From positions 6,755 through 70,754 of the forward strand of contig CADBUZ010000010.1 of NCBI GenBank assembly GCA_902797985.1: a stretch of 64,000 nucleotides of DNA, in the 5' to 3' direction. Below, piece by piece: positions 1 to 19,157 of the stretch. Under the pieces are notes generated by a model that saw only the letters and a list, made by a program, of their open reading frames with translations, did not search any database and was not told the origin of the DNA. Positions within the stretch are counted from its first letter, which is position 1, and every line of letters begins with the position of its first letter. The position numbers were made by a program, and so were the translations under genes. This DNA comes from an uncultured bacterium. Its GTDB lineage: Bacteria > Cyanobacteriota > Vampirovibrionia > Gastranaerophilales > Gastranaerophilaceae.

Positions 1-25
1 GACACATTAATGTTTTATATTGTAT

Positions 26-54
26 TATAAGAATAATGCTTCTCATGGTATAAT
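26..54 (+). promoter_or_regulatory. Candidate promoter of the helicase operon (extended -10 TGgTATAAT)
   Basis: TGGTATAAT lies at 46-54, about 20 nt upstream of the ATG at 75. The -35 region is weak, so the call rests on the extended -10 only. Confidence 0.3.
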
Positions 55-74
55 GAATTTGGAATTAATGGGTA

Positions 75-5900: not shown

Positions 5901-8002
5901 CTCCTGCTAATTACGCACAAAGAGCAGGTCGCGCAGGTAGGAGTTTACATTCTGCTGCATATGCATTAACATATTGTCCAAACAGTTCTCATGACTTAAA
6001 TTATTTTAAAAATCCTAAAAATATGATAGATGGTAAGATTAATCCACCTTCATTTAATATAAATAATAAAAAAATAATCTTAAGACATATTTTTGCATCA
6101 GCATTTTCTGTATTTTGGAAAAATAAAGATTATTCAGAATATTATACAAAAACTATTGGCGAGTTTTTTGACAAATCAGGTTTTACAAAATTTAAAGAAT
6201 ATTTGAATTCTAAGCCATCGGAATTAAAAAATTACCTTTTATCAGTAATTTCCGACAGAGAAACTATAGAATATTTTGATATTAATAATTTTGGTTGGGT
6301 TAAAAATTTATACAGCGAAGATCCTAAAGAACCCGGTGTATTTGATATTGCTAGAAAAAAATATGCAGAGAAATTAGATGAACTTGAAAAAGCTAGAAAA
6401 GAAGAAATCGAAAAAGCTCAAGAAGGGAAAAAATCAAAAATAGAAGGTATTCGTATTTCTATAGATAGTTTAAAAAGGCAACAAACAATTGAATTTTTAT
6501 CTTCAAACAATTTAATCCCAAAATACGGTTTCCCTGTTGATACTGTTGAACTACAAGGATTCAGTAGAAGTGGAATAATATCTAAATTACGTCTTGATAG
6601 AGACTTATTTAATGCTATATCTGAATATGCTCCAGGTTCAGAAATAGTAGCAAATGGTAAATTAATTAGAAGTCAATATGTAAAAAAATTAGAAGGTTAT
6701 GACTGGCCAAGACATAATTATAAAATATGCGAGCATTGTGGAACATTAAATCAAAGTAAAACTGGTTGGGGAGATGAACTTTCAATATGCAAACAGTGTG
6801 GTGAGGATTTATCAGATAAAAAATCTCGTCAATATATTGTGCCAAAATTCGGTTTTATTTCAGAAACAAATGAACCAAAAGATGTCGGAACAGATAAACC
6901 CGAAAAAACATATCACGGACAAATTTTATATATTGGAGATAAAGATAATATTATAGAGAAAAAATGTTTTCTAATTAATAATCAATTTGAGATCGAGCTT
7001 ACTTCAAGTAAGATGGATGAACTTGCTGTAATTAATACATCAAATTTTTATATATGCGATAAATGTGGCTATACTGAAACCGATAAGCACGGAATAAAAG
7101 ATGCAAAAGAAAAAACACACCCTAACCCTCGAGGGTATAATTGTCCAAACAAGCTTTTAACTAAATTAGATATAGGTCATGAATTTCAAACAGATGTTGT
7201 TGTTTTAAGATTTATAGGACAACAATTTGAAGATGATGAAGCTTGGTCAATATTATATTCATTACTTGAAGGGTTAAGTAAATATATTCCAGTTAATAGA
7301 AATGAAATTTCCGGTTGCTTGCATTGGTCTGAAAATAGTAGAGCATTTGTATTATTTGATAATACTCCAGGGGGAGCAGGATATGTAAGGCAACTTATGA
7401 ATCCATTAGTTATGCAAAATGTGTTGTCTACTGCACGTAAAATTGTAGAAGAATGCACATGTGGTGGTGAAGAAGGAGATGCGGCTTGTTACGCTTGTCT
7501 ATGCAACTATTATAATCAAAGACAACACGATAATTTAAAGCGCAAATATGCAATAGATTTTTATAAAAGATTATTATTTGGCAAAAATGATTTTTATGCC
7601 GAAGAACTTGAATTAATAGATAAATACAGTTCTGATGATTCAAAAACGCAAAAATATAAACTAATATTTAATAATAATGGAGTTAATTTAAGCAATAAAA
7701 CATATAAGGAAATATCAGATTACATTGCTGATGAAATAACACAAAAAGAGTTAGAAATTTTTAATTCAATATTACAAATAGAAAACATTGAATCATGCGA
7801 TAAACCATACTATATGCCAACTTTTACTGTGTTTGAGAATAAAGATGTGCTTGACCCAATTTTAGCTTGGCCAAATGCAAAAATAATACTATTTAGCAAT
7901 GATGAAAAGGAATCGTATGAAATTGCAAAGTATTCAGATTGGCATGCATTTTGTTTGTCAGAAGATTTTAATATGTTGAAGATAGTTAAATTATTAAAAT
8001 AG
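2903..8002 (+). CDS. SF2 DEAD/DEAH-box helicase fused to a zinc-ribbon-rich MrfA/DUF1998 domain (DruE-like, about 1699 aa)
   Basis: Helicase motifs: motif I TGTGSGKT (nt 3230-3250), motif II DEAH (nt 3656-3667), LTSAT and motif VI QRAGRAGR. There are multiple CxxC pairs. C-terminal DUF1998/MZB-type signatures: GHEFQTDVVVLRF, FDNTPGGAGYVRQL, CTCGGEEGDAACYACLCNYYNQRQH. Confidence 0.8.
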   Translation: MLFRPAESSNNIVEFYKRYLLTTFQTNNEKYNKQLAHELNEPNAIAKGPYISLTDSFEKGKTILDLIKENELVKSFGKIKKLKPERTLYKHQEEALRKANQNKNLIVTTGTGSGKTECFLIPVINQLLSEQENGTLDAGVRTLVVYPMNALVNDQIRRLREIFESTDDCNITFGRYTGETKEKYEDALEEYKNREGTLPIQNELISRDKMRENPPNILITNYAMLEYLLLRPGDNIFFSEENAKKWRFIVFDEAHTYEGAKGIEVGSLVRRLKATLNNQDINFILTSATLGDKRDNQKITDFGKLLCDAEFDQDSIIRSKTVAPLINEQAKELDFQIYRDLAEKIRTNVTEEDCIKYIEDKGIKIYPSLETTLYQMILNDVLYKNVRDVLYGKPRTLQNAAELLNLSENDFTDFITVASNALLNGDKIFDAKYHMFLRGIEGVYITLKPSEKLFINKLETYKPTPYANEDEIYKVFEISFCNNCNATFITGQTENREGIDYLVQKSKYNDDYKPEIYMINENEIEDEDFESEKSDIEYLICPHCGAIKKKSALKPLNCGHNPNEFQTIIKVKDSGDVLHTCPSCGTFNAQRSIIRPYLVGNEAVTAVIATALYNELPREILQVRETEKNNLFFGQSSTISEKIMTKLSKQFLAFSDNRQAAAFFASYLEQTYRTTLIKRLMTEITCTHQNKLNERGLSISIFKDYLVDLFNKYNIFEDTTTNDVREKEAYIAIIKELTNLKAKSSLQNKGILTFDFAVNIPEIEEYNLSKQEANTMVKILMTEFLKHRAVSLPLELTDADREKYLLNGIQMSFSKNPLDNKTIKSWIPNNFKRSKKIKFLNTLLPQLSEDDITDLLSMLWDYLKDERNKYLVTNNNLSYLLNIDKIIVKPVTNLYICPKCKTITQYNLRNICPKCLGKLEEYDYKKDLANNHYARVFHELQMDDLIAKEHTAQLGQDLAYEYQNEFKNKEINVLSCSTTFEMGVDVGSLETVFMRNMPPTPANYAQRAGRAGRSLHSAAYALTYCPNSSHDLNYFKNPKNMIDGKINPPSFNINNKKIILRHIFASAFSVFWKNKDYSEYYTKTIGEFFDKSGFTKFKEYLNSKPSELKNYLLSVISDRETIEYFDINNFGWVKNLYSEDPKEPGVFDIARKKYAEKLDELEKARKEEIEKAQEGKKSKIEGIRISIDSLKRQQTIEFLSSNNLIPKYGFPVDTVELQGFSRSGIISKLRLDRDLFNAISEYAPGSEIVANGKLIRSQYVKKLEGYDWPRHNYKICEHCGTLNQSKTGWGDELSICKQCGEDLSDKKSRQYIVPKFGFISETNEPKDVGTDKPEKTYHGQILYIGDKDNIIEKKCFLINNQFEIELTSSKMDELAVINTSNFYICDKCGYTETDKHGIKDAKEKTHPNPRGYNCPNKLLTKLDIGHEFQTDVVVLRFIGQQFEDDEAWSILYSLLEGLSKYIPVNRNEISGCLHWSENSRAFVLFDNTPGGAGYVRQLMNPLVMQNVLSTARKIVEECTCGGEEGDAACYACLCNYYNQRQHDNLKRKYAIDFYKRLLFGKNDFYAEELELIDKYSSDDSKTQKYKLIFNNNGVNLSNKTYKEISDYIADEITQKELEIFNSILQIENIESCDKPYYMPTFTVFENKDVLDPILAWPNAKIILFSNDEKESYEIAKYSDWHAFCLSEDFNMLKIVKLLK

Positions 8003-8011
8003 GATGATAGT

Positions 8012-9811
8012 ATGACTGTATATATTGCGGATGAACCAAATGAATATACACCAGAGAGTCAAGAGGATAAAATATTTTATGCTCTAAAAAATAATTTGCC
8101 CAAAGACGAAGATTATTACGTTTTTCATTCACTAAGAGTTACCAACGTTGTTAATAACGTAGTCATTCCAAAGGAAATTGATTTTGTTGTTTTTAATCCT
8201 AAAAAGGGGATAATATGTATAGAAGCAAAATCTGGCAATGTTTATACCAAATTAAATGAAATGAATAAATTAAAATGGTATTATGCAAATGGAGAGATTA
8301 TTGACAAGGGTGGTCCATATTGGCAAGCCGAAAAAAAGCAAATCGCAATAATTAATAGATTTAAAAAAGCAAAATGTTCACATCTTTTGGATAAATGTAA
8401 AATTCATTTTGCAGTTTGGTTTATTTCGTTAACTAAAGAACAATTTCATAATATTACTTTAACTCCGGAAGCTTCAGAGGAACTTACACTAACTAATGAA
8501 GATTTACAAAATCCTGGAGCAGCATTAGATAAAATATTTAGTTTAGATGTTGAAAAACATATTAATACAGAACTAACAAAATTTGATGTAAAAAAAGTAT
8601 TAGAAAATGTGCTGTGTCCAGAATTTAATCTTGTAGCATCTATGGCTTCAGAGATTTCTTTAAAAAGAAGTTCTCTTGCTCGTTTATTAGCGGAACAAGT
8701 AAAAATTTTAGATTTTTTGGATGAACAACAAGTTGTAACTATAAATGGTGCTGGTGGTACTGGTAAAACAATGATCGCATTGGAAAAAGCAAAAAGGTAT
8801 GCAAATAATGAGGAAAATGTTTTGTTTCTATGTTACAACAAAGCTCTATGCGAACACCTAAGAAATAATTATTCTCACTCAAATATAGATTTTTACAATA
8901 TTGATGCATTTGCGTGTTCATATTGTAAAACAGGTATAGCAGACTACAAATTATTAAAGAACAAAATTACAGACGATTATTTAGATGGTAATTTTAAGTA
9001 TAAGCATGTAATAGTTGATGAAGGGCAAGATTTTGGTCAATCAGAAATAGAAGAAAATCAAATATTAGATACATTTGAAGCTGCCGTTGTGAATGAAGAA
9101 GATGAAACTGGTAGCATGTATGTTTTTTATGATAAACAACAATTTATACAGGGTGAAGGTTGTCCAAGTTATATAAAAAATGCTGATTGTAGACTTTCAT
9201 TAACTGTTAATTGTAGAAATACAAATAATATAGCTGAAACATCAATTAGACCATTAAATTTACCTAAAAAATACAGAAATATAAAAATCAGACCAGATAG
9301 TGTAATAGGAGATACAACAACCTTATATGCTTCTGTAGATAAAGATAAACAACTCGAACATTTAAATCTATTCATTAAAAAATGCACAAGCAAAAGTATA
9401 AATCCTAAAGAGATTGTGATAATTTCTTGTAAAACTAAAAGTGAAATTGAAAATGGTAACAGTTTGCTTTCTAATTATGGGTCAGAATATACATGTGATA
9501 GTGTAAACATTAAAATAACAAATTGTGCCGATTTTAAAGGTCTTGAAGCAGATGCGGTTATATTAATAGATGTTGATAAAGGCACCTTTAATACTCAAAA
9601 AAATTGTAATAGGTTCTATGTTGCTGCTTCTAGAGCCAAATTCAATTTATACATAATTTGTGATATGACTCAAGAGGATTGTGCTATCTGTTCAGAAATC
9701 ATACAAAATAAAAAAGAAAATTTACCAGATAATATATCATTAGAAAATATAAAACTGAAAAATGCAGAAAAAAGATTTGCGGCAACCTTAAATGCAACTA
9801 TTTTATCTTAA
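8012..9811 (+). CDS. NERD nuclease-like domain fused to SF1 (UvrD-like) helicase
   Basis: Starts 9 nt after the previous stop with an AGGA-type RBS. N-terminal NERD-like block: FHSLRV...EIDFVVFNPKKGIICIEAKSG. Walker A GAGGTGKT and Walker B VIVDEGQDF. C-terminal FKGLEADAVILIDV...YVAASRAK is typical of UvrD_C_2. Confidence 0.75.
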   Translation: MTVYIADEPNEYTPESQEDKIFYALKNNLPKDEDYYVFHSLRVTNVVNNVVIPKEIDFVVFNPKKGIICIEAKSGNVYTKLNEMNKLKWYYANGEIIDKGGPYWQAEKKQIAIINRFKKAKCSHLLDKCKIHFAVWFISLTKEQFHNITLTPEASEELTLTNEDLQNPGAALDKIFSLDVEKHINTELTKFDVKKVLENVLCPEFNLVASMASEISLKRSSLARLLAEQVKILDFLDEQQVVTINGAGGTGKTMIALEKAKRYANNEENVLFLCYNKALCEHLRNNYSHSNIDFYNIDAFACSYCKTGIADYKLLKNKITDDYLDGNFKYKHVIVDEGQDFGQSEIEENQILDTFEAAVVNEEDETGSMYVFYDKQQFIQGEGCPSYIKNADCRLSLTVNCRNTNNIAETSIRPLNLPKKYRNIKIRPDSVIGDTTTLYASVDKDKQLEHLNLFIKKCTSKSINPKEIVIISCKTKSEIENGNSLLSNYGSEYTCDSVNIKITNCADFKGLEADAVILIDVDKGTFNTQKNCNRFYVAASRAKFNLYIICDMTQEDCAICSEIIQNKKENLPDNISLENIKLKNAEKRFAATLNATILS

Positions 9812-9911
9812 AAAATCCTAATTTTGTGTTGTAATGATACGATTTTGTCAAATTTAATTGAAATTTTCCCTACAACAAGTGATTAATTGCATAGCAGGAA
9901 GGAGTTTTGCT

Positions 9912-10112
9912 ATGACAGGAAAAGATTACACTTTATACGGAACAAAGATTTTGAATCTTAAAACTCAAGAAATCGGCTTGCTGATTTGTTTATGGAAAAA
10001 CAAATTTGCCGATAAAACTGTAGATTTTGCAACTTGCGTTGATAAAACCGGCAAGAGATATAACATTGAACTTGATAATATAAGAGGGTTTGAAGATGAT
10101 TTTGAAAAATAA
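9912..10112 (+). CDS. Small hypothetical protein (66 aa)
   Basis: Strong RBS AGGAAGGAG lies 7 nt upstream of the ATG at 9912. The upstream TTG-initiated extension in the ORF track has no RBS. No recognisable domain. Confidence 0.4.
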   Translation: MTGKDYTLYGTKILNLKTQEIGLLICLWKNKFADKTVDFATCVDKTGKRYNIELDNIRGFEDDFEK

Positions 10113-10374
10113 ATTAACCAAAGAGACATTAGACATTCCATATTCTGAATTCAGAAAAAAGTTTGCAAAAGAAATTCGGGATGCGTTTGAAAGTTACCGC
10201 AAGACACAATTGAACAAATATTCTTGGAACTTCAAAGACGACAATTCATTGGAGTTTAATTTTTATTTTGAACTCCATTGGAATTTCAATCATTTTGGAA
10301 ATAGTAACTGGTATATAGAACTTTATTTGAATAGTATCTTTTACCTGAACTCCAATATTGTACTCAATCATTAA
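10096..10374 (+). CDS. Small hypothetical protein, doubtful
   Basis: The ATG at 10096 overlaps the previous small ORF by 17 nt. The 3' 129 nt overlap the convergent mrr coding region, which argues against at least the 3' part being real. Confidence 0.2.
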   Translation: MILKNKLTKETLDIPYSEFRKKFAKEIRDAFESYRKTQLNKYSWNFKDDNSLEFNFYFELHWNFNHFGNSNWYIELYLNSIFYLNSNIVLNH

Positions 10375-11199
10375 CTTTGCAAGTTGTTTACCATCAACTA
10401 AAATAATGTTCGAATTTATATTATTGGCATATTCTCTAGCTTCATTGGTAAATGATGAAGTTGTAATAAATACTCCACGGTTTGCATTTTGTCCGTGTAC
10501 AGCACCAACAAATTTTTGGACTTCAGGACGTGATACGTTTTCCGCCCACCTTTTTGCTTGAATATAAATTTTGTCCAATCCTAAAACATCTTGCTTAATA
10601 ATCCCGTCGATTCCCTCATCACCGGATTTGCCTCGATTTTGTAATATATCTTTTTCTGAGCCACCATAACCCATTGCCAATAACAATTTCGCAACTAACT
10701 CTTCAAAGAAGGTTGGGGAATTGTCTGCAATCTTAGATAATAAATCCGCTTCTAAATGAGATGTCAATATCGCTCTTGCTTCTGCTATTAACTCATCTGG
10801 AGTTTTTTGTTCTTCAGCTGATTCATAAGAAGTTGTTTCACTTTGTTCAGTATTTACAGTATTTTGAAAATCTCTAAATTCATCATACTGAAGTAAGAAG
10901 TTTTTGGTTATTTTATCGGGATTTGTTTTTATTAAATCAATACCTCGCTGAGTAATTTTTATTACACCTCTTGCTGGGTAATCAAGCAAACACGCTTTTT
11001 TAAGATATGTTCTTGCCCACATAGCACGATTATAATATGTTGCTTGCGTTTGGCTTGGTAATTTTTCTTGCTTATCTTCTTCTGACAAACCAAGCATGTC
11101 AGCAGCTTGTTCGACAATATCTCTGCTTTTGTGTTCGTAATTATCTGCTATGAGTTTAAGTGTTGGTAACATAAAATCTTGATAACTTGGTACTGTCAT
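10246..11199 (-). CDS. mrr: Mrr-family type IV restriction endonuclease (Mrr_N winged helix + Mrr_cat)
   Basis: The N-terminus SYQDFMLPTLKLI...IVEQAADMLGLSEED is typical of Mrr_N. The catalytic block GDEGIDGIIKQDVLGLDKIYIQAKRW...TTSSFT is typical of PD-(D/E)xK Mrr_cat. Confidence 0.8.
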   Translation of the reverse strand: MTVPSYQDFMLPTLKLIADNYEHKSRDIVEQAADMLGLSEEDKQEKLPSQTQATYYNRAMWARTYLKKACLLDYPARGVIKITQRGIDLIKTNPDKITKNFLLQYDEFRDFQNTVNTEQSETTSYESAEEQKTPDELIAEARAILTSHLEADLLSKIADNSPTFFEELVAKLLLAMGYGGSEKDILQNRGKSGDEGIDGIIKQDVLGLDKIYIQAKRWAENVSRPEVQKFVGAVHGQNANRGVFITTSSFTNEAREYANNINSNIILVDGKQLAKLMIEYNIGVQVKDTIQIKFYIPVTISKMIEIPMEFKIKIKLQ

Positions 11200-11247
11200 A
11201 CTCCACTCCTTTTTTATTAGTTTATCATAAAAAACTTACATTCGTTT

Positions 11248-12615
11248 ATGATATACTTGAACCAAAAGGAATGTTTAATGACATTAATAGATAAAGAACT
11301 TGAAGTCGTTAAAATTAGCGATTTAGAAAATATAAAAATACCTAATTATCAAAGACCTTATACTTGGGGAATTGATTCTGTTAATACGCTTTTCGATGAT
11401 ACTTATAAAGCTTATAAAAAACAACTGAATGAATATAGACTCGGTTCCGTTATTTTACACAAAGTTAATAATAGTTATTTTATAGTCGACGGACAACAAA
11501 GGCTAACAACTATTACGCTTTTATTATTTTGCTTAAATAAAAAATGCGGGACATCTGAGAATTTCTGTTTAATGAATTCTGAATATAGTTTTTTATCAAA
11601 CAATACTATATTAACAAATCATGTAATTTTACAGCAAAGAGTTAGTGACTTAGATATTGAAGAATGTAAGAACTATAGGAGCTATATATTATCTCATTGC
11701 ACCTTCGTTAAAATTGTTACTGATGATGAACAAGAAGCCTTTCAGTTCTTTGATTCTCAAAATTCAAGAGGCAAAGAATTAGCACCTCATGATTTATTAA
11801 AGTCATATCATTTAAGAGAAATGAATGATGTTGAAACCGTTAAAAAAGTAAATATAATCAATAAATGGGAAAATATTAATCAAGATGACTTGGAAGTACT
11901 TTTCGAAAATTATTTGTACCCTGTTACACAGTGGTACAGATGTAAAAACGGCCTTTATTATTCTTCTAAAAAGATAGGGCAATTTAAAGGTATTACTAAG
12001 AATAATAACTATAACTATGCTGTTTACCATAAATCAAGTAATCTTTTTGTCGAACAATTTAATCAATCAGGGAATCACGAACTTTTAAATACAACAATGT
12101 TAAATCAATTTCAATTAACTCAACCAATTATTGCAGGAAGTCGGTTCTTTGAATATAGTCTACATTATAAAAATTTATTAGATGCCATTCGTTATAAATT
12201 AGAAATTTATCATAACAATGATGACGAGATACCAAATACAAGATCTGGAGATATTTACATAAAACAGCTATATGAATGTGTACTTTTATTTTTTGCTGAT
12301 AAATTCGGAATAGAATCTATTAATGATTCCGTTTTTCGTATAATTTATACTTGGAGCTATTTATTAAGATTAAAAATGAGTGCCGTTTATCAACAAACAA
12401 TCAATAAGTATGCATGTGGAGATCATAAAGATAGAACAAATATTAATATTCCAATTTTTGCATACATAAATGATTGCGTAAATCCCGAAGACTTAAATAT
12501 GCTCATTATTCCGAAACCTAGCGAAAACGAAATCCCTGCAGAAAATAAAGACAAATACAATGTAATATACCAAAAATTATTTGAAGATAACGGATGGCAA
12601 GAAGATGACAAATAA
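11248..12615 (+). CDS. DUF262 (ParB-like NTPase, GmrS-type) protein without a DUF1524 nuclease domain
   Basis: Motifs IPNYQRPYTW, DGQQRLTT and FDSQNSRGKELAPHDLLKS. No HNH/DUF1524-like C-terminus is seen. The true start may be the ATG at 11278, which has an AGGA RBS. Confidence 0.7.
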   Translation: MIYLNQKECLMTLIDKELEVVKISDLENIKIPNYQRPYTWGIDSVNTLFDDTYKAYKKQLNEYRLGSVILHKVNNSYFIVDGQQRLTTITLLLFCLNKKCGTSENFCLMNSEYSFLSNNTILTNHVILQQRVSDLDIEECKNYRSYILSHCTFVKIVTDDEQEAFQFFDSQNSRGKELAPHDLLKSYHLREMNDVETVKKVNIINKWENINQDDLEVLFENYLYPVTQWYRCKNGLYYSSKKIGQFKGITKNNNYNYAVYHKSSNLFVEQFNQSGNHELLNTTMLNQFQLTQPIIAGSRFFEYSLHYKNLLDAIRYKLEIYHNNDDEIPNTRSGDIYIKQLYECVLLFFADKFGIESINDSVFRIIYTWSYLLRLKMSAVYQQTINKYACGDHKDRTNINIPIFAYINDCVNPEDLNMLIIPKPSENEIPAENKDKYNVIYQKLFEDNGWQEDDK

Positions 12616-14386
12616 TCAAACAAAACCAACCCAAATAGCAATATCTGATATTTTTAAAGATGTTGAATATATTGTTCCAATATATCAAAGAAACTATGCA
12701 TGGAAAGCAAAACAAATAGAGCAATTGATTGAAGATATAAATAGTGCTAAAGACAACTATTATCTTGGTACTTTAATAGTGAATCAAAAAGAACAGAGCG
12801 TTTACGAAGTGATTGATGGCCAACAAAGATTAACAACTCTCTACTTATTAAAATTGTATTTATTAAACAATTCAAATAAGGAAGTCCATATTTATAACAA
12901 AACCCCACTACAATTTGAAGCAAGAGAAAAATATCATAATACATTATTAAATCTAAAAAAAGGTAATAGGATTGATGAAGAATTTGGTGCTACCGAATTA
13001 TATGATGGATACTTTGATATAAAAAAATATTTTAAAAATAACTCTAACAAAATAGATGAAACAAAATTTATAGAAAAACTAAAAAAAGTTTTTATAGTCA
13101 GAGTTCAGGTGCCTAAAGATATTGATTTAAACCACTATTTTGAAATAATGAATACTCGTGGAGAGCAATTAGAACTTCATCAAATTGTAAAAGCAAAAAT
13201 CCTTGCGCAATTAGATGATAACAAAGATAAACGAGTTGCGGCATATATATGGGATAGTTGTGCAAATATGGATTCATACGTACAAATGAGTTTTGATAAA
13301 GCAACTCGCAATAAATTATTTAGTGATAATTGGTCTAAATTAAAAGAAAACATTAAAGATTGGGAAACATTAAAAGAATATTTTTCCTATCAGATTTCAG
13401 AAGAAAAAAATCCAACGCTTCGGGAAATACTTGAGAAAACTACTGAATATAAAATAGAATCTAATATAAATAATGAAGATGTTGACAATGAACGCTTTGA
13501 ATCTGTAATATCCTTTCCAAATTTTATTTTACAAGTCAATGCCGTAATTTTTAATGATGAAGACGATACATCTTTAGATGATAAAAATTTTATACAAGTA
13601 TTAAAAAACAATTGGGAAAGTGCAGATGCAGCAAAATTATTTATTATAAAAATATTGGAATGTCGTGTTTTATTTGATAAATATATTTTGAAACGAGAAT
13701 ATGCAAAGGACTATCAAAAGACAGGTAAATGGTCACTACAAAAGTTGGAAAAGTATAAAGACATTCAAAGAAATAATGCCGAAAAGCCTTTATATAAGGT
13801 TACTGATGTCGAAAACGCTGATACTTTACGTACACTAGAATCGGCATTACGTATTACATACACATCTCCTAAAACAATGCATTGGATTACACTTGTTCTC
13901 AAAAAACTATTAGAAGATGAAAATATAAATTTAGTTGATTTGCTTGAACAGTATTGCCTGCGAAAAATTGATGAAGCTGATTATAAAAACAAAAATGGTT
14001 TTAATATAGAAAGAATTGTTTTTTCATATTTAGATTATTTACTATATAGAGATAATTATAAAGGTATTACAAAAAATGATTGGGAGTTTCAATTTAGAAA
14101 CTCTATTGAACACTTTTATCCGCAACATCCGGATAACGAAGAAAACTGGAATAAGAATGATTTGGATGGATTCGGCAATTTAGCATTAATAACTGTATCA
14201 GGGAATTCAAAGTTTTCTAATATGCCCCCAAGTGCAAAAATTGATTATAAGGAAATAATAAAACAAAGTTTAAAATTACAAATTATGATGAATATTACCA
14301 AAAATAATAATAAAATCTGGACTCCTGAACTTGCAGAAGAGCATAAAAAAGAAATGATAAAAATTCTTGATAATAATGGTATTTAA
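12605..14386 (+). CDS. GmrSD-family type IV restriction enzyme (DUF262 + DUF1524 HNH-like nuclease)
   Basis: N-terminal motifs VPIYQRNYAW, DGQQRLTT and FEIMNTRGEQLELHQIVK. C-terminal IEHFYPQH...GNLALITVSGNSKFSN is DUF1524-like. The ATG at 12605 overlaps the upstream gene by 11 nt. Confidence 0.75.
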   Translation: MTNNQTKPTQIAISDIFKDVEYIVPIYQRNYAWKAKQIEQLIEDINSAKDNYYLGTLIVNQKEQSVYEVIDGQQRLTTLYLLKLYLLNNSNKEVHIYNKTPLQFEAREKYHNTLLNLKKGNRIDEEFGATELYDGYFDIKKYFKNNSNKIDETKFIEKLKKVFIVRVQVPKDIDLNHYFEIMNTRGEQLELHQIVKAKILAQLDDNKDKRVAAYIWDSCANMDSYVQMSFDKATRNKLFSDNWSKLKENIKDWETLKEYFSYQISEEKNPTLREILEKTTEYKIESNINNEDVDNERFESVISFPNFILQVNAVIFNDEDDTSLDDKNFIQVLKNNWESADAAKLFIIKILECRVLFDKYILKREYAKDYQKTGKWSLQKLEKYKDIQRNNAEKPLYKVTDVENADTLRTLESALRITYTSPKTMHWITLVLKKLLEDENINLVDLLEQYCLRKIDEADYKNKNGFNIERIVFSYLDYLLYRDNYKGITKNDWEFQFRNSIEHFYPQHPDNEENWNKNDLDGFGNLALITVSGNSKFSNMPPSAKIDYKEIIKQSLKLQIMMNITKNNNKIWTPELAEEHKKEMIKILDNNGI

Positions 14387-14502
14387 GAATAAAACTTTGC
14401 CATTTCATATGTTAAATATGTATTGTAATAAAATATTACACAATAAGCCTGTAGTATACGCTTTTGCTTTATTTTAATATTAAAAACATTAAATTTTAAT
14501 TT

Positions 14503-15222
14503 CTATGCGAATTTATATTGATTCTTTTTATTACGTTTTATACACAAGGGCTTTAATTTTTCATCATTGTTTAGAAAATTAGAAACATAATTATAACGAT
14601 TTTCAACTAAAATGCTAGCATGGCAAGGTTTATTATTGCTTGTCTTTCGATATGCATATATTTCAATTTTATTGTTGTAAAATACATCTAGGTATTTTTG
14701 CATGTTTGTTACTTTTTTATTGCTTCCGCCCCATGCAATTAAAAGGGTTGAATTTTCTTTATTTTTTAAAACATAATCTTTTATAAATTCAGTATTTATA
14801 TTAGCAATATTTTCATCAATACTTATATTTTGTGAATTACTGTCGCCATCAATACGTGGATATGAGTTTAATACAGTAATCTTGTTATATTTTAATTTAT
14901 AAGCAACCCTAATTATGTTTTTAATAGTATAGTCAAATACTTTTGATTTATCGGTACTTGCAAAAGTATTTGAGGGGTTCATTAATATAGCAACAAACTC
15001 TTTTCCATTTTTAAATTTTGTATTTTTTATTTCTATATTTAAATAGTATCTGTAATCTTGTTTTTGAGGGTTAGGTGAGCTATAATACCCATAACCTGAC
15101 ACATCTAAAATAATATCTTTTAATTTTGTACAGTTCGGTAATTTGTAATTTACTGTTCCCTCAAGATTAATTTTAAATATTTCACCAAGTTTATCAATAA
15201 TTTGCTTAATACAGTATCTCAT
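14503..15222 (-). CDS. DUF1643-family protein with about 70-aa N-terminal extension
   Basis: YRYYLNIE...FVAILMNPSNTFAS...DYTIKNIIRVAYKLKYNKITVLNSYP matches the DUF1643 pattern RY.L.R.W...MLNPS.A....D.T......A...G......NL. Confidence 0.55.
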   Translation of the reverse strand: MRYCIKQIIDKLGEIFKINLEGTVNYKLPNCTKLKDIILDVSGYGYYSSPNPQKQDYRYYLNIEIKNTKFKNGKEFVAILMNPSNTFASTDKSKVFDYTIKNIIRVAYKLKYNKITVLNSYPRIDGDSNSQNISIDENIANINTEFIKDYVLKNKENSTLLIAWGGSNKKVTNMQKYLDVFYNNKIEIYAYRKTSNNKPCHASILVENRYNYVSNFLNNDEKLKPLCIKRNKKNQYKFA

Positions 15223-15279
15223 GCCATAGATTTTATCATAAAAGTAGAATGGGATAATTTATAAAATCTATTTTGGAAA

Positions 15280-15687
15280 TTATTCATACTCAATTCCGAA
15301 TAATTCTTTTTCAATTTGTTTGAAATGTTCCGGAGATAGAGTTTTTTGGGGTTGATTTTGTTTTGGCTCGATAATTTGTCGTTTGACCTGCGGCAGATTT
15401 TTTAAGATATGCATCAGCGAATACATTTCTGCCTGTGGAGTTTGTTGATTATTATCGATGTCGTTTGAAATTTTATCCATAATTTTTTGAGCAAAGTTCA
15501 GTAGTTCTCGGTTAAAAAGCTCTTGCTCTCTGCCTTTTTCTAACCTCTTTTTATCCCAATCATATTCTTTCTTCCAATAAAATAAAGTCCTGCGCGATAG
15601 GTCAAGTTTTGCACCAATCACATCAAGCGGTTGTTTTTCATAAACATACAAATGCTCTGCTTGTTTTAATTTATCTAATTTAGTCAT
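15280..15687 (-). CDS. Small HTH DNA-binding protein (Terminase_5/gpP-like HTH), last gene of the transposition operon
   Basis: AEHLYVYEKQPLDVIGAKLDLSRRTLFYWKKEYDWDKKR resembles the Terminase_5-type HTH. Only 2 nt separate it from the upstream gene. Confidence 0.45.
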   Translation of the reverse strand: MTKLDKLKQAEHLYVYEKQPLDVIGAKLDLSRRTLFYWKKEYDWDKKRLEKGREQELFNRELLNFAQKIMDKISNDIDNNQQTPQAEMYSLMHILKNLPQVKRQIIEPKQNQPQKTLSPEHFKQIEKELFGIEYE

Positions 15688-15689
15688 TT

Positions 15690-16244
15690 TTATACCTCAA
15701 ATATTATTCTGTCTATTGTAAAATTTGTTTTATCGGATAATCTTCGCACCTGAAAATTACAAGTTCTATCAATTATTCCGAGATTTTGAAAATATTTAAT
15801 CATCTGATTTAAAAGCGCTAATGTGTTTTTCAATACTTTTGGCGGTAAGTTTCTGCCTTTGCAAAAATAGTAAAACTTTTGGATATCCTCGCAAGTAATA
15901 TCATTTAAGTTTTTATTTCTGAAAAATGGGGAAATGTGATGCTTTAAAATTCCACAATATTTTCTAAAAGTATTATATTTACAATTATTTTTAACATAAT
16001 TCTCTAAAAAATATTCAATTGCAGCATTAATTGTAATAACCTGATAATTTGTCGTTTGTTTTGTGCAAATGATAAATTCTTGCTTAGGCTTTTCTTCCTG
16101 ATATTTATACATACCTTGTTCAAATACCAATTTATTCCCGTTCAAAAGCTGTTCAAGCTCTGTTTTACAATTGCATTCTGCAATAATTTCAATTTCATCA
16201 AGTGTAAATTCTTTTAAATGTCGCGCTAATTTTTCTATGTTCAT
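15690..16244 (-). CDS. Stand-alone tyrosine-recombinase core-binding (SAM-like) domain protein, no catalytic domain
   Basis: AIEYFLENYVKNNCKYNTFRKYCGILKHHISPFFRNKNLNDITCEDIQKFYYF...LALLNQMIKYFQNLGII follows the Phage_int_SAM/CB domain pattern. The ORF ends after 184 aa. It overlaps the upstream ATPase gene by 4 nt. Confidence 0.5.
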   Translation of the reverse strand: MNIEKLARHLKEFTLDEIEIIAECNCKTELEQLLNGNKLVFEQGMYKYQEEKPKQEFIICTKQTTNYQVITINAAIEYFLENYVKNNCKYNTFRKYCGILKHHISPFFRNKNLNDITCEDIQKFYYFCKGRNLPPKVLKNTLALLNQMIKYFQNLGIIDRTCNFQVRRLSDKTNFTIDRIIFEV

Positions 16245-16846
16245 ATTATTTGATTTATTACCTCCATATTTATTTCTGCTAAATTATTGTCTTTGGCAAA
16301 CGTTTCCATTTTATTTATTAATTGAACAATTTGTCGAAATCTGTTGTATTTTGTGTGGATATATTCAATTGTTTCTGGAGTAAACGTAATTTCGGATAAT
16401 TGGTTAATTATTAGCCCTATATCATTTACCCCAAAAGTTTCAAATTTTAGAATCTCTGAAAATCTGTCATAGAGATGCTTGTATCTTTCAAGTTTTCTGT
16501 GTGCTAAACCCATGCCGATAAAAATTATTGGGCAGCCGGTTTCGTCGTGAATATCACGCAAAGTTTCAATGGTTTTATAGTTATTCATCAGATAATCAAT
16601 TTCATCAATAAAAATTACCTGCGGATTTTGTTTTAGCTTTTTAACCACAATATTAATAAGGTTTGATGCACGCAGATAAATCCCGTCATATTTACAAGCA
16701 AGCCACAAAGCTGTTTGTGATTTACCAAGTCCCGGCTCACCATAAACCAATCCCATTTTTGGAATATTTTTTGGTTTGTTTATTAAATTTTCAACAAGTC
16801 CGATAAAGTTTTTGACGTTAGTAGTTTTTACAAAAATCTTATTCAT
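16241..16846 (-). CDS. AAA+ transposition ATPase (TniB/TnsC/MuB-like), unusually short (201 aa)
   Basis: Walker A GEPGLGKSQ and Walker B VIFIDEIDYL. It overlaps the transposase gene by 8 nt. Confidence 0.7.
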   Translation of the reverse strand: MNKIFVKTTNVKNFIGLVENLINKPKNIPKMGLVYGEPGLGKSQTALWLACKYDGIYLRASNLINIVVKKLKQNPQVIFIDEIDYLMNNYKTIETLRDIHDETGCPIIFIGMGLAHRKLERYKHLYDRFSEILKFETFGVNDIGLIINQLSEITFTPETIEYIHTKYNRFRQIVQLINKMETFAKDNNLAEINMEVINQII

Positions 16847-18545
16847 ATAAAAGTCTATACTCCTTTGTATTTCTAAATTCCGTTATCCAAGAATTATTTG
16901 GATCATTCGCAACTAAATATTCATATTTTTCTGAATTATTTTTGAACATCTTTTGAACGCCATTTAAACGGGTATTAAACACTTCTTGAAGGGGTAAATC
17001 TGAAGATTGTGTTTCTATTTTTGTTTCTAAAAGTTTTATATCTTTCGTTTCCAGATATTTTTTAACAGATTCAACAGTTTTCTTTTTTAATTGTCTTTGT
17101 CTTACAATTTTTTGCTTGTAATCTTCGTAGTCTTTAACATCACCTAGTAATTTTGCCATCGGATGTGTTTCTGTTACACGTTCTGCGGTACACAGGTATT
17201 CGCCTTTTGGGGTGTAAACTTTAATACTAGTGAGGTCAAAAAGATTATATTTTATCAAGACTTTACTTTTAAAGCCGTACAACCTTTCATCAAAATAATC
17301 ACAGTTTAAAAACCTAATACCATTTCGCTGAATTGTTTTAACTTCGGTTGCGAGCATCAAATCGTCAAGATTGTTAATATCAATATTTTGTCTTTTTCGT
17401 TCTTCTAAAACTTCCGCAATAGTTTTATCCGGAGCATTCGGGCAGGGCTGTGAATTTTTGAAACTCAGCCACATATCTATCATTTTTATTGTTTCTTCTA
17501 TAGTAGGAATAAAATCATTGTGTAGGCTTTTATGGAATTTTTCATTCCGCATCATATAAGCAGGTTTATTTTGAATACTGCTTCCGATATAACTTGGAAG
17601 TAATTTTTCAAAACTTTCCTGAAATTCTTTGAAAAATCTTTCAATTACTTTAGCTCTTGCGTTGTATGGTCTTGCAAAAACTGTTTCAATTCCTAACTTT
17701 GAATACAACCCCTGAAATCCAAGTTCCGTGAATCCCTTATCATCAGTAAAATATTTTGCTCTAAATGCTTTGCCGTTGTCCTGATACACAACTTTCGGTA
17801 TCATATCAAGATTGATTATTGCGTTTCTGAGGGCAGATGCTATACACTGCGTATTTTCTTCAATCATAATTTCATAGCCGACTAACGCTGTTGATTTCCA
17901 ATCCAAAAATCCAACAAGAGTTGCTCTGCATGGTTTACCTGTAAACGGATTAATCACCTGAAACGCTAGTTTATGCCCGTCTGCTACTAAAATATCCCCG
18001 ACTTCAAGTAAACTTGCATCTCGTTTTATATATGGTTCGACTTTATCAGATAGTGCTTTTTCTCCGTCACGAGCAAGAATCCATTTATCATAATTGTTAT
18101 CTTTAAACCATTTTGCATATCTTCTAAAAGTAATATCTGCCGGAATAAAACTTTGTCCTTGTTCTTTTAATTTGTATTTAGTAAGTGCAATTGCTTTGCC
18201 TATCGAAAATCTATTTGGGTGCAAAAGCAATCCCATAAATATTTTTATTTCTTCTTCATTCAGTACAGTCCTATAATCGTTGACACTACTGTATTTGTAT
18301 TGAGGTAAAAGCTTTGTATAATCATCTTTTCCATTTAACATTGAGTACCAACGATGTAAACTGCCTCGGGATATTTTACCTAAAATTTCAAAAATATGAG
18401 AGTTTGATGTATTATGCAATTTTACAAAATCATAATCGGCTTGGAGTTTATTTTGAGATTTCTTTCTAAACTCAAGCCATTGATGAACGATATCAAGTCT
18501 TGCTAAAGCTATTTGTTTACATTTTTCGGGTGTGAAGTTTATCAT
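16839..18545 (-). CDS. DDE (rve) transposase of the TnsB/TniA/MuA family
   Basis: DDE residues lie in VADGHKLAF, VYQDNGKAF and AKVIERFF. The C-terminal IQRNGIRFLNCDYFDERLYGFKSKVLIKYNLFDLTSIKVY matches the Mu-transposase C-terminal domain pattern. Confidence 0.85.
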   Translation of the reverse strand: MINFTPEKCKQIALARLDIVHQWLEFRKKSQNKLQADYDFVKLHNTSNSHIFEILGKISRGSLHRWYSMLNGKDDYTKLLPQYKYSSVNDYRTVLNEEEIKIFMGLLLHPNRFSIGKAIALTKYKLKEQGQSFIPADITFRRYAKWFKDNNYDKWILARDGEKALSDKVEPYIKRDASLLEVGDILVADGHKLAFQVINPFTGKPCRATLVGFLDWKSTALVGYEIMIEENTQCIASALRNAIINLDMIPKVVYQDNGKAFRAKYFTDDKGFTELGFQGLYSKLGIETVFARPYNARAKVIERFFKEFQESFEKLLPSYIGSSIQNKPAYMMRNEKFHKSLHNDFIPTIEETIKMIDMWLSFKNSQPCPNAPDKTIAEVLEERKRQNIDINNLDDLMLATEVKTIQRNGIRFLNCDYFDERLYGFKSKVLIKYNLFDLTSIKVYTPKGEYLCTAERVTETHPMAKLLGDVKDYEDYKQKIVRQRQLKKKTVESVKKYLETKDIKLLETKIETQSSDLPLQEVFNTRLNGVQKMFKNNSEKYEYLVANDPNNSWITEFRNTKEYRLLYE

Positions 18546-18652
18546 AATGTATTACCTCACACACATTCATCACTCACCTTTCGGAATAAATCAAGTCCTA
18601 AATCTCAATCTCAGAGACATTTTGACACATATCAAAATGTGAGATAAATTAT

Positions 18653-18780
18653 TTTTGCACTTTATTGCACAAAATTGCACATGGTAAATATTCAAATATA
18701 TTAGCGGTTTTAAGCATATAATACACTTAAAAATACAAATATTGGTGCAAAATAGTGCAAAAATTGTGACAAAAGTGCAA
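18653..18780. repeat. Phased hexamer arrays (3x TTGCAC, then inverted 3x GTGCAA + 1x GTGACA), candidate transposase-binding sites of the element end
   Basis: TTGCAC lies at 18655, 18665 and 18675. GTGCAA lies at 18745, 18755 and 18775, and GTGACA at 18766. Spacing is about 10 bp within each array, and the arrays are inverted relative to each other. Confidence 0.6.
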
Positions 18781-18926
18781 AAATGGACCGGCAAATCTCT
18801 ACACTATAAATCTGCCTCTATTACCCTAAACATCGGCACTATTACGATAAAACTCCCATCACAACTGTCCTGAAAACCTATACTTGGTGGTTCTCGTCCT
18901 TACTAATTTATGTATATAATTAAAAA

Positions 18927-19008
18927 TGTCGAAGATGGGACTCGAACCCACAAGGTGTTAACCACACGAACCTGAATCGTGCGTGTCTACCAATTCCACC
19001 ACTCCGAC
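18927..19008 (-). tRNA. tRNA-Leu (anticodon CAG), class II with long variable arm, no encoded CCA
   Basis: Reverse complement: GTCGGAG TG GTGGAATTGGTAGACAC G CACGA TTCAGGT TCGTG TGGTTAACACCTT GTGGG TTCGAGT CCCAT CTTCGAC A. The cloverleaf folds by hand with a 7-bp acceptor stem (one G-U). U33 and G37 flank the CAG anticodon. Confidence 0.9.
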
Positions 19009-19157
19009 ATTTCCTAAATTATACATCACTTTCAAATCAAATGCAAAATTATACTACCCACACTGACTGGCTAAATCTGTAATGAAAACACTTGAAAAGA
19101 GAACAATAATTTATTAGTCAGTTTTGGGGAATGTACCCCAATTAAAGGAGGTTAAAA

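Follow-up and report, generated by a model that had tools for sequence, protein, structure and literature searches.

A putative Mu-derived transposon, probably protein-targeted to tRNA genes, in an uncultured Gastranaerophilaceae bacterium

Introduction

How might a DNA transposon find the downstream flank of a tRNA gene by means of proteins rather than a guide RNA? The question is raised by a cluster of four minus-strand ORFs at 15280-18545, adjoining a tRNA-Leu(CAG) gene, in a stretch of 64,000 nucleotides (the window) from an uncultured bacterium of the Gastranaerophilaceae. A sequence-only reading had described the cluster as a CAST-like transposition module in which an integrase-like core-binding-domain protein occupies the position of TniQ, and had suggested that target selection is protein-only. 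In this work the four genes, the ends of the element, its cargo and its relatives are examined. The locus probably represents the left portion of a transposon, not itself a phage, that took its machinery from transposable (Mu-like) phages and is protein-targeted to tRNA genes.

Results

The locus and its core genes

The four ORFs were recovered at their predicted sizes and with the junctions first described (an 8-nt overlap, a 4-nt overlap and a 2-nt gap), and the identities first proposed for them were borne out by Pfam. The genes and the adjoining host features are as follows.

18926..19009, minus strand: tRNA-Leu(CAG), host gene with the targeted 3' flank (ARAGORN; Rfam tRNA, 49.8 bits)
18883..18925, no strand: host spacer of 43 bp from the tRNA 3' end to the left end (left-end profile match ending at 18882; flank census)
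16839..18545, minus strand: predicted MuA-type DDE transposase, 568 aa (Pfam Mu-transpos_C and rve; PHROG 310)
16241..16846, minus strand: predicted MuB/TnsC-type AAA+ ATPase, 201 aa (Pfam AAA_22/TniB)
15690..16244, minus strand: 184-aa protein with a winged helix and a core-binding domain (Pfam Phage_int_SAM_3; AF2; Foldseek)
15280..15687, minus strand: 135-aa protein, HTH fold plus a long helix (DUF1804 / Terminase_5 HTH; PHROG 756; AF2 model)

Purifying selection acts on all four core genes, with dN/dS values of 0.07 for the transposase, 0.25 for the 184-aa protein and 0.16 for the 135-aa protein. The 184-aa gene is translationally coupled to the ATPase gene.

Ancestry of the transposase and ATPase

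The transposase matches the Mu-phage family PHROG 310 over its full length (E=4.5e-87) and is 46-50% identical to the transposases of true Mu-like phages, in which portal, MuF and Gam genes are present. When a transposase profile was searched against the PDB the best match was MuA (4fcy, 5e-14, positions 59-499, end-binding domains included) and the second was ShCAST TnsB (2e-10); with the single sequence the top match was ShCAST TnsB (E=2e-4). Residues D189, D256 and E302 are invariant in the transposase alignment, and from this we infer that they are the catalytic triad. A 226-aa relative of the ATPase matches PHROG 296 (E=9e-38), and the PDB matches to the ATPase profile include ShTnsC (7e-6) and MuB. 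ShTnsB and ShTnsC are also relatives of the module, but MuA and the Mu-phage PHROGs score better in this comparison of match ranks. Judged from these matches, the transposase and the ATPase appear to be of MuA/MuB type and not CAST- or Tn7-derived.

The window copy of the ATPase carries both Walker A and Walker B, and 25 conserved residues between them are removed by an in-frame deletion, which accounts for a length of 201 aa versus 226 aa in the relatives. The ATPase is probably defective, and because the conserved residues are missing the window copy is probably non-autonomous and dependent on other copies for movement.

Ends, repeat arrays and target duplications

The left end of the element was located with an nhmmer profile of 10 diverse left ends. 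This end and the neighbouring features are as follows.

18774..18882, minus strand: conserved left end, terminus 5'-TATAGGTTTTCAGGACAGTTGTGATGGGAG at 18882 (nhmmer profile, E=1.2e-25)
18745..18782, minus strand: first array, a 10-bp-phased set of four TTGCAC-type hexamers that includes one variant, TTGTCA
18654..18681, plus strand: second array, a 10-bp-phased set of three TTGCAC hexamers in the opposite orientation to the first
18546..18640, minus strand: conserved leader ahead of the transposase gene, TGTGTCAAAATGTCTCTGAGATTGAGATTTAGGACTTGATTT... (L001, L003, L004, L085)

The same terminus recurs in ~70 loci and lies 43 bp from the tRNA, closer than the 80-150 bp first estimated. Together with the right end of the family it forms an imperfect inverted terminal repeat of ~13 bp. 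The left end begins with TA, whereas the ends of Mu and Tn7 typically begin with TG. The last 5 bp of the host spacer are CCAAG in the orientation of the element and would represent one of the two target-duplication copies. The right-end profile had no match in the window, and the other end of the element lies outside it.

Relatives supplied the right end and the duplications that the sequence-only reading had proposed to obtain by comparison. A 12.7-kb element is flanked on both sides by AGGGA in L003/L005 and at a second site, in L004, by GGGAG on both sides; a sister element with a tyrosine recombinase (YR), L100, has the duplication ACGGA. The target duplication in the family is 5 bp. The left and right flanks of two loci, L021 and L031, do not match as duplications; a possible reason is exchange between copies that are stacked. 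The four core genes of L084 and L085 are followed immediately by the right end.

The two hexamer arrays are separated by ~60 bp of non-conserved DNA. The first array is the sole cluster of its kind in the window and is kept upstream of the transposase gene of relatives, and arrays were not found at the right ends of the family. The sister family of YR type has the same array architecture with a different hexamer, CGGACA. The predicted fold of the leader was not significant (z = -1.47).

The family and its cargo

The window element has 312 relatives in Candidatus Gastranaerophilales MAGs. Elements measure 13 to >19 kb. The complete element of L003, within its 5-bp duplications, holds nothing but the four core genes, restriction-modification genes, Gabija-like genes and small genes. 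In the window the cargo consists of defence genes, has a GC content of 0.25-0.30, versus ~0.40 to the right of the tRNA, and comprises the following.

1..15222, no strand: cargo, continuing past the left edge of the window (ORFs; PADLOC)
75-2903: 942-aa partner of DruE
2900-8002: DruE-like helicase (PADLOC DruE, 2.4e-174)
8012-9811: NERD-helicase
about 9911-10374: conserved small gene pair
10246-11199: Mrr type IV restriction enzyme (PADLOC mREase_IV, 1.3e-85)
11248-14386: two DUF262 proteins
14503-15222: DUF1643 protein

The gene order, the protein sizes and the location beside a tRNA gene are the same as in type V-K CASTs, as the first reading noted. On that model cas12k, a CRISPR array or TniQ could be located at the end of the element that falls beyond the window. 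No CRISPR-like array was found in window positions 1-19200 and no TniQ or Cas match in 1-19000, where TniQ was tested to E 1 with all four proteins; weak Cas3 matches in the cargo are helicase-level and lie beneath the DruE match. The absence of cas12k, CRISPR array and TniQ first noted for the 18 kb available stood, and it extends to complete relatives. Neither Cas, TniQ and TnsA nor a repeat array is present in the 12.7-kb element of L003/L005, the right ends of L084 and L085 come straight after the four genes, and no Cas genes were called in the related loci examined. Despite the single-sequence match to ShCAST TnsB, a V-K-like or Tn7-like transposon with such components at its unseen end is extremely improbable, and for the family this interpretation is refuted by L003/L005 and by the right ends of L084/L085.

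A decayed Mu-like prophage, or an integrase-type tRNA island in which the 184-aa ORF is a broken integrase, was also considered. Genomic islands beside tRNA genes are usually integrase-driven, the A and B genes are of phage type and relatives of the 184-aa protein with a catalytic domain exist. However, complete copies contain no integrase and no phage structural or lysis genes (presence of the phage genes would have marked a Mu-like prophage remnant), the ends carry 5-bp duplications and not att repeats, genomes hold multiple copies at different tRNAs, and hundreds of proteins keep the length of 184 aa and show purifying selection. The element content, the duplications and this conservation contradict such an origin, which we regard as very improbable. 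The family appears instead to consist of Mu-derived transposons that lie downstream of any tRNA or tmRNA gene and carry defence genes in gut Melainabacteria; it is apparently undescribed.

Targeting of tRNA and tmRNA genes

A transposon with a DDE transposase and an AAA+ ATPase parked beside a tRNA gene had been recognized from the start, and the same location recurs across the family. A tRNA gene (20 species) or the tmRNA gene precedes 48 of 59 distinct left-end flanks. The orientation of the element is constant at these targets, on the same strand as the tRNA with the left end proximal, and insertions lie 37 to ~100 bp from the tRNA/tmRNA 3' end, with a minimum of 37. This distance could be shaped by selection against damage to the tRNA terminator. 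Tn7 and CASTs insert at a fixed spacing, in contrast to the broad 37-100 bp seen here. The T-loop box GTTCRANYC is present in 44/44 targets, and the nearest cluster of insertions is 59-66 bp away from it. Among phage-type relatives none of 11 has a tRNA in the locus. Elements stack in tandem or nest within a copy already present, in its left end, and single genomes carry multiple copies at different tRNAs.

The identity of the target tRNA does not track protein sequence. Transposases that are 100% identical are found at tRNA-His and tRNA-Ser, HTH proteins 98.5% identical at tRNA-Thr and tRNA-Lys, and core-binding proteins 94.6% identical at tRNA-Gln and tRNA-Tyr. Since complete relatives have no Cas12k, CRISPR array, TniQ or TnsA, targeting is taken to be protein-only, which is undescribed as far as could be found.

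The 184-aa third protein

The third protein consists of a winged helix (residues 1-50) and a tyrosine-recombinase core-binding domain (residues 72-155). As first read, its C-terminal half is a core-binding/SAM-like domain and no catalytic domain follows: Phage_int_SAM_3 is the sole Pfam match (residues 76-125, 5.4e-13) with no match to Phage_integrase, the AF2 model (pLDDT 86.7) has a core-binding fold and no catalytic domain, and Foldseek matches the model to 3nrw, 2kkp and the core-binding domains of lambda Int and Tn1549 Int. In relatives of 330-365 aa the catalytic domain, with its R-K-H-R-H/W-Y residues, starts at the exact point at which the protein stops. The window family, L003 included, lacks any recombinase that retains a catalytic domain.

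The first reading had held that a homolog with a catalytic domain at the same position would mark the 184-aa protein as a decayed fragment. Such homologs do exist, as full-length tyrosine recombinases with R..HxxR..Y motifs occupy the third-gene position in L090 and L094-L100, but the 184-aa form is not decayed because its length is constant in hundreds of copies (624 homologs have the same length) and its dN/dS is 0.25. Across relatives the third protein is modular, with a conserved winged helix and a variable C-terminal domain. The winged helix is similar to the gene that follows B in Mu-like phages (hhalign probability 91%, E=1e-6), and since it follows B in true phages it is older than the recombinase fusion.

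It is possible, though we lean against it, that the protein is a remnant of a cointegrate-resolution recombinase, its DNA-binding half being kept as a regulator or architectural factor at the phased TTGCAC arrays, which would once have served as a res or arm-type site, while another component targets the tRNA. Tn5053 and type V-K CASTs, which have no TnsA, form cointegrates, and the same would be expected of the elements described here; Tn552 and Tn5053 keep a serine resolvase after the ATPase, just as the sister elements keep a full-length YR, and longer tyrosine recombinases are found at this position in L108 and L122. Transposition that leaves a 5-bp duplication is seen in the sister elements too (L100), so the YR is not their integrase. 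The arrays, in direct and inverted sets, occur at the left end only. In L110, the third protein has no recognisable core-binding domain and yet the locus lies ~40 bp after a tRNA, so the core-binding domain may not be the tRNA reader. Against a remnant, the arrays show no recognisable res-like core site (a 6-8 bp spacer between inverted half-sites), and the winged helix predates the recombinase fusion. Moreover, a gene with a role in resolution only should be lost once catalysis is lost; instead it shows constant length, purifying selection and coupling to the ATPase.

The 135-aa HTH protein

The 135-aa protein has weak DUF1804 / Terminase_5 HTH matches in Pfam and matches PHROG 756 (E=1.8e-12). 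A protein of the Mu-like phage L117 is 33% identical to it (E=8e-18); the gene for that protein overlaps the large-terminase gene at the start of the latter, and the L117 transposase shares 50% identity with that of the element. These matches indicate homology to small terminases of the Mu gp27/DUF1804 type; a fold search with the HTH model gave generic matches only.

A satellite of Mu-like phages, in which this protein would redirect the large terminase of a helper to a pac-like site at the TTGCAC arrays, is conceivable but unlikely. Phage particles would then carry the element from cell to cell, and replication and insertion would be left to the A/B genes. In Mu the pac site also lies in the left end, 10-bp-phased repeats would suit an oligomeric HTH ring, and defence cargo beside a tRNA resembles known satellites. 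On the other hand, a helper phage of the same host was not identified, capsid-remodelling or other satellite genes were not found, headful packaging of an element of this size would take up much host DNA, the HTH fold matches are generic and the protein could simply be a repressor.

Discussion

Relation to known systems

The family shares with Mu-like phages the MuA- and MuB-type proteins, the 5-bp duplication, the winged-helix homolog after B and the HTH homolog before the large terminase. It differs in having no structural, lysis or Gam genes, in its defence cargo, in the core-binding domain of the third protein and in a left end that begins with TA. The target choice of these phages is near-random, whereas the family occupies the 3' flank of tRNA and tmRNA genes in a fixed orientation.

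The likeness to ShCAST (TnsB-TnsC-TniQ-Cas12k) includes the order of transposase, ATPase and small third protein near the left end, the lack of TnsA, 5-bp duplications, a position downstream of a tRNA with the left end proximal, TnsB as the second-best structural relative and a host lineage that is sister to Cyanobacteria. ShCAST reportedly inserts 60-66 bp from the PAM, and the closest insertions of the family lie at a similar distance from the box, which may be coincidence. Unlike ShCAST, the family has no Cas12k, tracrRNA, CRISPR array or TniQ, uses any tRNA/tmRNA gene rather than one guide-matched site, inserts over a broad range of distances and has machinery nearer to Mu than to Tn7.

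Relative to Tn552 and Tn5053, the sister elements L090 and L094-L100 also have a site-specific recombinase after the ATPase, lack TnsA and are presumably replicative. The recombinase is of tyrosine and not serine type and is lost in the window family. TniQ, which Tn5053 has, is absent, and insertion is into tRNA flanks instead of res sites.

TnsF of Tn6022 and the Tsy element is a target selector derived from a tyrosine recombinase, without catalysis, in a DDE/AAA+ transposon; it retains an inactivated catalytic-like domain, has zinc fingers, acts together with TniQ and TnsA, and directs insertion to comM (Faure et al. 2023, PMC10293859). The third protein resembles TnsF, by description, in being recombinase-derived and catalysis-free with active-recombinase relatives in sister elements, and differs in that its catalytic domain has been lost entirely, its N-terminal part is a winged helix of Mu type, TniQ is absent and the targets are tRNA genes. 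CasMu-V and CasMu-I are non-phage MuA/MuB transposons that acquired a dedicated target-selection module, which consists of inactivated CRISPR effectors and guides (Altae-Tran et al. 2023, PMC10910872); the family has none of these.

Proposed mechanism

In the mechanism we propose, the MuA-type transposase would pair two unlike ends and the MuB/TnsC-type ATPase would mark the target DNA. An element-encoded DNA-binding protein would read the shared 3' part of tRNA genes (T-arm/acceptor, box GTTCRANYC) at least 59 bp from the insertion, and a local preference for a G/C triplet would then fix the exact site within the permitted range. The third protein, with its ancestral winged helix that partners the B ATPase and its core-binding domain, is a tentative candidate for the selector; the small-terminase-like HTH protein is a weaker one, and the rest of the likelihood falls to the transposase, the ATPase or a host factor.

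A more specific version can be put forward as speculation. The selector would be two-headed, its Mu-type winged helix binding the B ATPase or the left-end repeats and its domesticated core-binding domain binding the tRNA gene, which would tether the left end, and the transposon would read the T-arm/acceptor of every tRNA/tmRNA gene; it may also ride Mu-like phages via the small-terminase homolog. In eukaryotes the Ty3 and Dada elements target tRNA genes, and the generic targeting of tRNA genes proposed here would be like theirs. If this is true, a bacterial transposon finds a generic feature of tRNA genes by means of a protein and not a guide RNA.

The four-gene module in the window and its left end

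ORF calling recovered the four minus-strand genes as they had been described from the sequence alone, encoding proteins of 568, 201, 184, and 135 aa with overlaps of 8 nt and 4 nt and a gap of 2 nt. In Pfam, the first protein matched Mu-transpos_C and rve, the second AAA_22/TniB, the third Phage_int_SAM_3 only, and the fourth, weakly, DUF1804/Terminase_5; none of the four matched TniQ at E values up to 1, in agreement with the absence claimed previously. The module lies beside one tRNA gene:

18926-19009, minus strand (same strand as the module), tRNA-Leu(CAG)

The sequence-only reading had placed the element end 80-150 bp from this tRNA; the left-end profile corrects this to 43 bp, with the left terminus at window position 18882. 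TTGCAC arrays occupy window 18654-18681 and 18745-18782, and such arrays are confined to the left end. The leader was also considered as a structured RNA and this was rejected, as its fold did not reach significance and Rfam gave no match. Searches with the TTGCAC motif and the right-end profile found no right end in the window, and the element therefore runs off the left edge.

The region to the left of the module (window 1-15222) is AT-rich cargo that includes genes for a DruE-like helicase, a NERD-helicase, an Mrr-type restriction enzyme, and two DUF262 proteins, and it contains no CRISPR-like array, in line with the sequence-only reading. The DruE-like helicase (1700 aa, PADLOC E=2.4e-174) is preceded by a 942-aa protein without any match (window 75-8002), and this protein may be the unrecognised partner in a Druantia-like system. 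A pair of small genes (~66 aa and ~75-94 aa) at window 9858-10374 (+) recurs in two related loci, L003 (12938-13354, -) and L085 (9491-9980, +), with 79-87% nucleotide identity across elements whose cargo otherwise differs; in L085 the pair precedes the transposase and follows the same conserved leader.

The transposase, 184-aa, and 135-aa genes are intact in the window copy. The ATPase gene (16241-16846) has an in-frame 75-bp deletion at window 16656. The 25 residues lost, from the stretch between the Walker A and B motifs, are conserved in all relatives (226 aa) and also in those of a sister family with a full-length tyrosine recombinase in the third-gene position. Because the deleted segment is a conserved part of the AAA+ core, the window copy is probably immobile unless complemented.

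A family of transposons with Mu-type machinery

Among species-representative genomes, 312 relatives of the transposase were counted, the great majority in gut and rumen MAGs of Candidatus Gastranaerophilales/Melainabacteria, and several genomes hold more than one copy of the element. The 184-aa protein has 624 homologs, almost all of 184-189 aa. The module is constant and the cargo is variable (restriction-modification, Gabija-like, and other defence genes), and all four genes are under purifying selection, with dN/dS of 0.07 for the transposase, 0.05 for the ATPase, 0.25 for the 184-aa gene, and 0.16 for the 135-aa gene.

The transposase matches the Mu-like phage family PHROG 310 over its full length (E=4.5e-87), and its profile finds MuA as the best PDB entry (5e-14), end-binding domains included, followed by ShCAST TnsB (2e-10) in the catalytic core only. 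Residues D189, D256, and E302 are invariant and would constitute the catalytic triad. The ATPase matches the MuB family PHROG 296 and shows weak relatedness to ShTnsC, MuB, and VchTnsC. Relatives of the transposase at 46-50% identity occur in true Mu-like phages with repressor, B, Gam, portal, and MuF genes, and none of 11 such phage loci has a tRNA. In L110, a family locus, the first module is followed immediately, and in the same orientation, by a second, distant pair of transposase and ATPase (23% and 28% identical, respectively; 4406-7238), with a gene for a 63-aa HTH protein ahead of the pair.

The 135-aa protein is 33% identical (E=8e-18) to a gene of the Mu-like phage locus L117 that overlaps the large-terminase gene at its start and occupies the position of the Mu gp27/DUF1804 small terminase; Foldseek of the 135-aa model returned generic HTH matches only. 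An unlikely reading of this homology is that the small-terminase homolog and the left-end repeats form a pac system, the element being a satellite of Mu-like phages. It is compatible both with target selection by the third protein and with a resolvase origin for it, which are weighed below.

Element ends and target duplications

Each copy has one conserved left end, starting 5'-TATAGGTTTTCAGGACAG or TATAACCTTTCAGG, as found by a profile of the first ~110 bp ahead of the module, and a conserved right end, ...TCTTGTTCTGTATGTTAAATTACA-3', was found in ten loci. The termini have ~13 bp in common (TATAATTTAACAG vs TGTAATTTAACAT), the only terminal similarity that a comparison with left ends of other subfamilies brought out; a search for long inverted repeats between the boundaries of the complete element in L003 gave nothing above shuffled controls.

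The family moves by DDE transposition and not by integrase recombination. An identical 12.7-kb element is flanked on both sides by AGGGA in L003 and L005 and by GGGAG in L004, where it is nested inside the left end of a window-like copy whose flanks rejoin into unbroken left-end sequence; a sister-family member is flanked by ACGGA. Direct repeats of ~70 bp with the tRNA-Val 3' end in L003 were first read as att sites of the element, a reading that was rejected, since a 5-bp duplication marks the boundaries of the element; the repeats are part of distinct 110-bp mini-insertions within the tRNA. These 110-bp sequences have hairpins (L003 7109-7290 and 20039-20218; also upstream of the left end in L034 and L048), each is followed by a ~70-bp copy of the tRNA or tmRNA 3' end and terminator, and they have the appearance of integrase-type mini-insertions within the tRNA gene that displace the transposon at least 200 bp from it.

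More complex arrangements were also seen. An IMG/VR contig (L107, ~6900-13400) carries a decayed window-like copy with split transposase, ATPase, and 184-aa genes and, beside it, an additional left end together with a divergent A/B module whose third gene encodes 222 aa, in a tangle of nested elements. In the sister-family locus L100, ~3 tandem copies of a ~270-bp AT-rich repeat (~16730-17540) form an insertion that separates the left-end repeats from the transposase leader in the downstream copy.

Insertion at the 3' flank of tRNA and tmRNA genes

DDE transposition in this family is site-directed and orientation-specific, its targets being the 3' flanks of tRNA and tmRNA genes, and the elements have no guide RNA system, TniQ, or TnsA. 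The same-strand 3' end of a tRNA (20 species) or tmRNA (9 cases) lies 37-234 bp upstream in 48 of 59 distinct left-end flanks, and most of the others either belong to a second copy that is stacked behind a further element or are interrupted by a contig end. Where the distance is larger, remnants of earlier left ends or small insertions of unrelated origin in the tRNA account for it. Every one of the 44 flanks at a distance of up to 130 bp contains the T-loop box GTTCRANYC, and the nearest insertions cluster 59-66 bp from it. When the spacer between tRNA and left end was searched for a target motif, only terminator T-runs were conserved, with a GAGAACC-like motif in just a few spacers. The 5 bp beside the left end often contain GGG or CCC (e.g., AGGGA, GGGAG, CCCTC, CGGGG) by our reading of ~40 loci in genomes of ~30-35% GC, which suggests a local target preference of the transposase.

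The identity of the target does not follow protein sequence: identical transposases are found at tRNA-His and tRNA-Ser, HTH proteins that are 98.5% identical at tRNA-Thr and tRNA-Lys, and core-binding proteins that are 94.6% identical at tRNA-Gln and tRNA-Tyr. Since tmRNA has only the T-arm and acceptor end in common with tRNAs, we infer that this 3' part of the gene is the recognised feature.

The third protein as candidate target selector

In the model of the 184-aa protein (pLDDT 86.7), residues 1-50 fold as a winged helix, which a linker connects to a core-binding domain of four helices at residues 72-155. This predicted domain can be superposed on its counterparts in integrases, upholding the assignment made earlier for the C-terminal half. 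The nearest longer relatives are tyrosine recombinases of 330-365 aa that have both domains in common with it (30-38% identity) and, beyond them, a catalytic domain in which the customary Arg, His-x-x-Arg, and Tyr are found. In the sister family (L090, L094-L100) recombinases take the identical position after the ATPase and a transposase that is 53-58% identical, with longer versions in L108 and L122. These elements also lie beside tRNAs, nest in resident left ends, make 5-bp duplications, and have CGGACA in place of TTGCAC as the phased repeats of the left end. The winged helix aligns with a small protein encoded directly after B in related true phages (hhalign probability 91%, E=1e-6) and, as judged from sequence, is older than the recombinase fusion. 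In Fusobacterium phage phiRTG5 (L089), a true Mu-like phage, a 259-aa integrase-like protein with a SAM-like domain and a weak catalytic-domain match is encoded just upstream of the transposase (3230-4009); it was rejected as a relative of the 184-aa protein, similarity between them being undetectable.

In the mechanism we propose, an element-encoded DNA-binding protein would dock on the T-arm/acceptor end of the tRNA or tmRNA gene and recruit or nucleate the ATPase on the downstream side, and the transposase would then insert past a ~59-bp footprint at a locally preferred site. The third protein is tentatively ranked first as the candidate selector because it is in the TniQ position and translationally coupled to the ATPase, because a conserved adaptor with a variable DNA-binding domain is a build typical of selectors, and because TnsF sets a precedent for a recombinase-derived target selector (PMC10293859). 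Counting against this, the third protein of L110 has an unrecognisable C-terminal domain, yet the element lies ~40 bp from a tRNA; a link of the core-binding domain itself to tRNA adjacency was rejected on the same variant. The main rival, which we consider doubtful, is that the third protein is a relic of a cointegrate resolvase and now a regulator that binds the phased repeats.

Comparison with known systems and significance

The family behaves like a safe-site transposon of the Tn7/CAST type and uses the same location as V-K CASTs, but it lacks the TniQ and Cas effector that define Tn7/CAST elements. Its descent makes it a Mu-type A/B machine, yet phage structural genes are absent and insertion is non-random. 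The domesticated recombinase half resembles TnsF, and the recombinase after the ATPase in sister elements resembles Tn552/Tn5053. CasMu are phage-free Mu transposons with added selectors (PMC10910872). No published description of the family was found in the literature covered, which was incomplete.

The family would give MuA/TnsB and MuB/TnsC machines a third route to safe sites, besides TniQ/TnsD proteins and CRISPR guides. As the target class is any tRNA or tmRNA gene, each genome offers dozens of landing sites, and the compact four-gene module is a possible tool for guide-free insertion at conserved sites. The elements form an evolutionary series from a transposable phage, to a phage-free transposon with a tyrosine recombinase, to a transposon with the recombinase DNA-binding half only, which parallels TnsF and bears on the origin of tRNA homing in the sister phylum's V-K CASTs. 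The family also accounts for the build-up of defence islands beside tRNA genes in gut Melainabacteria.
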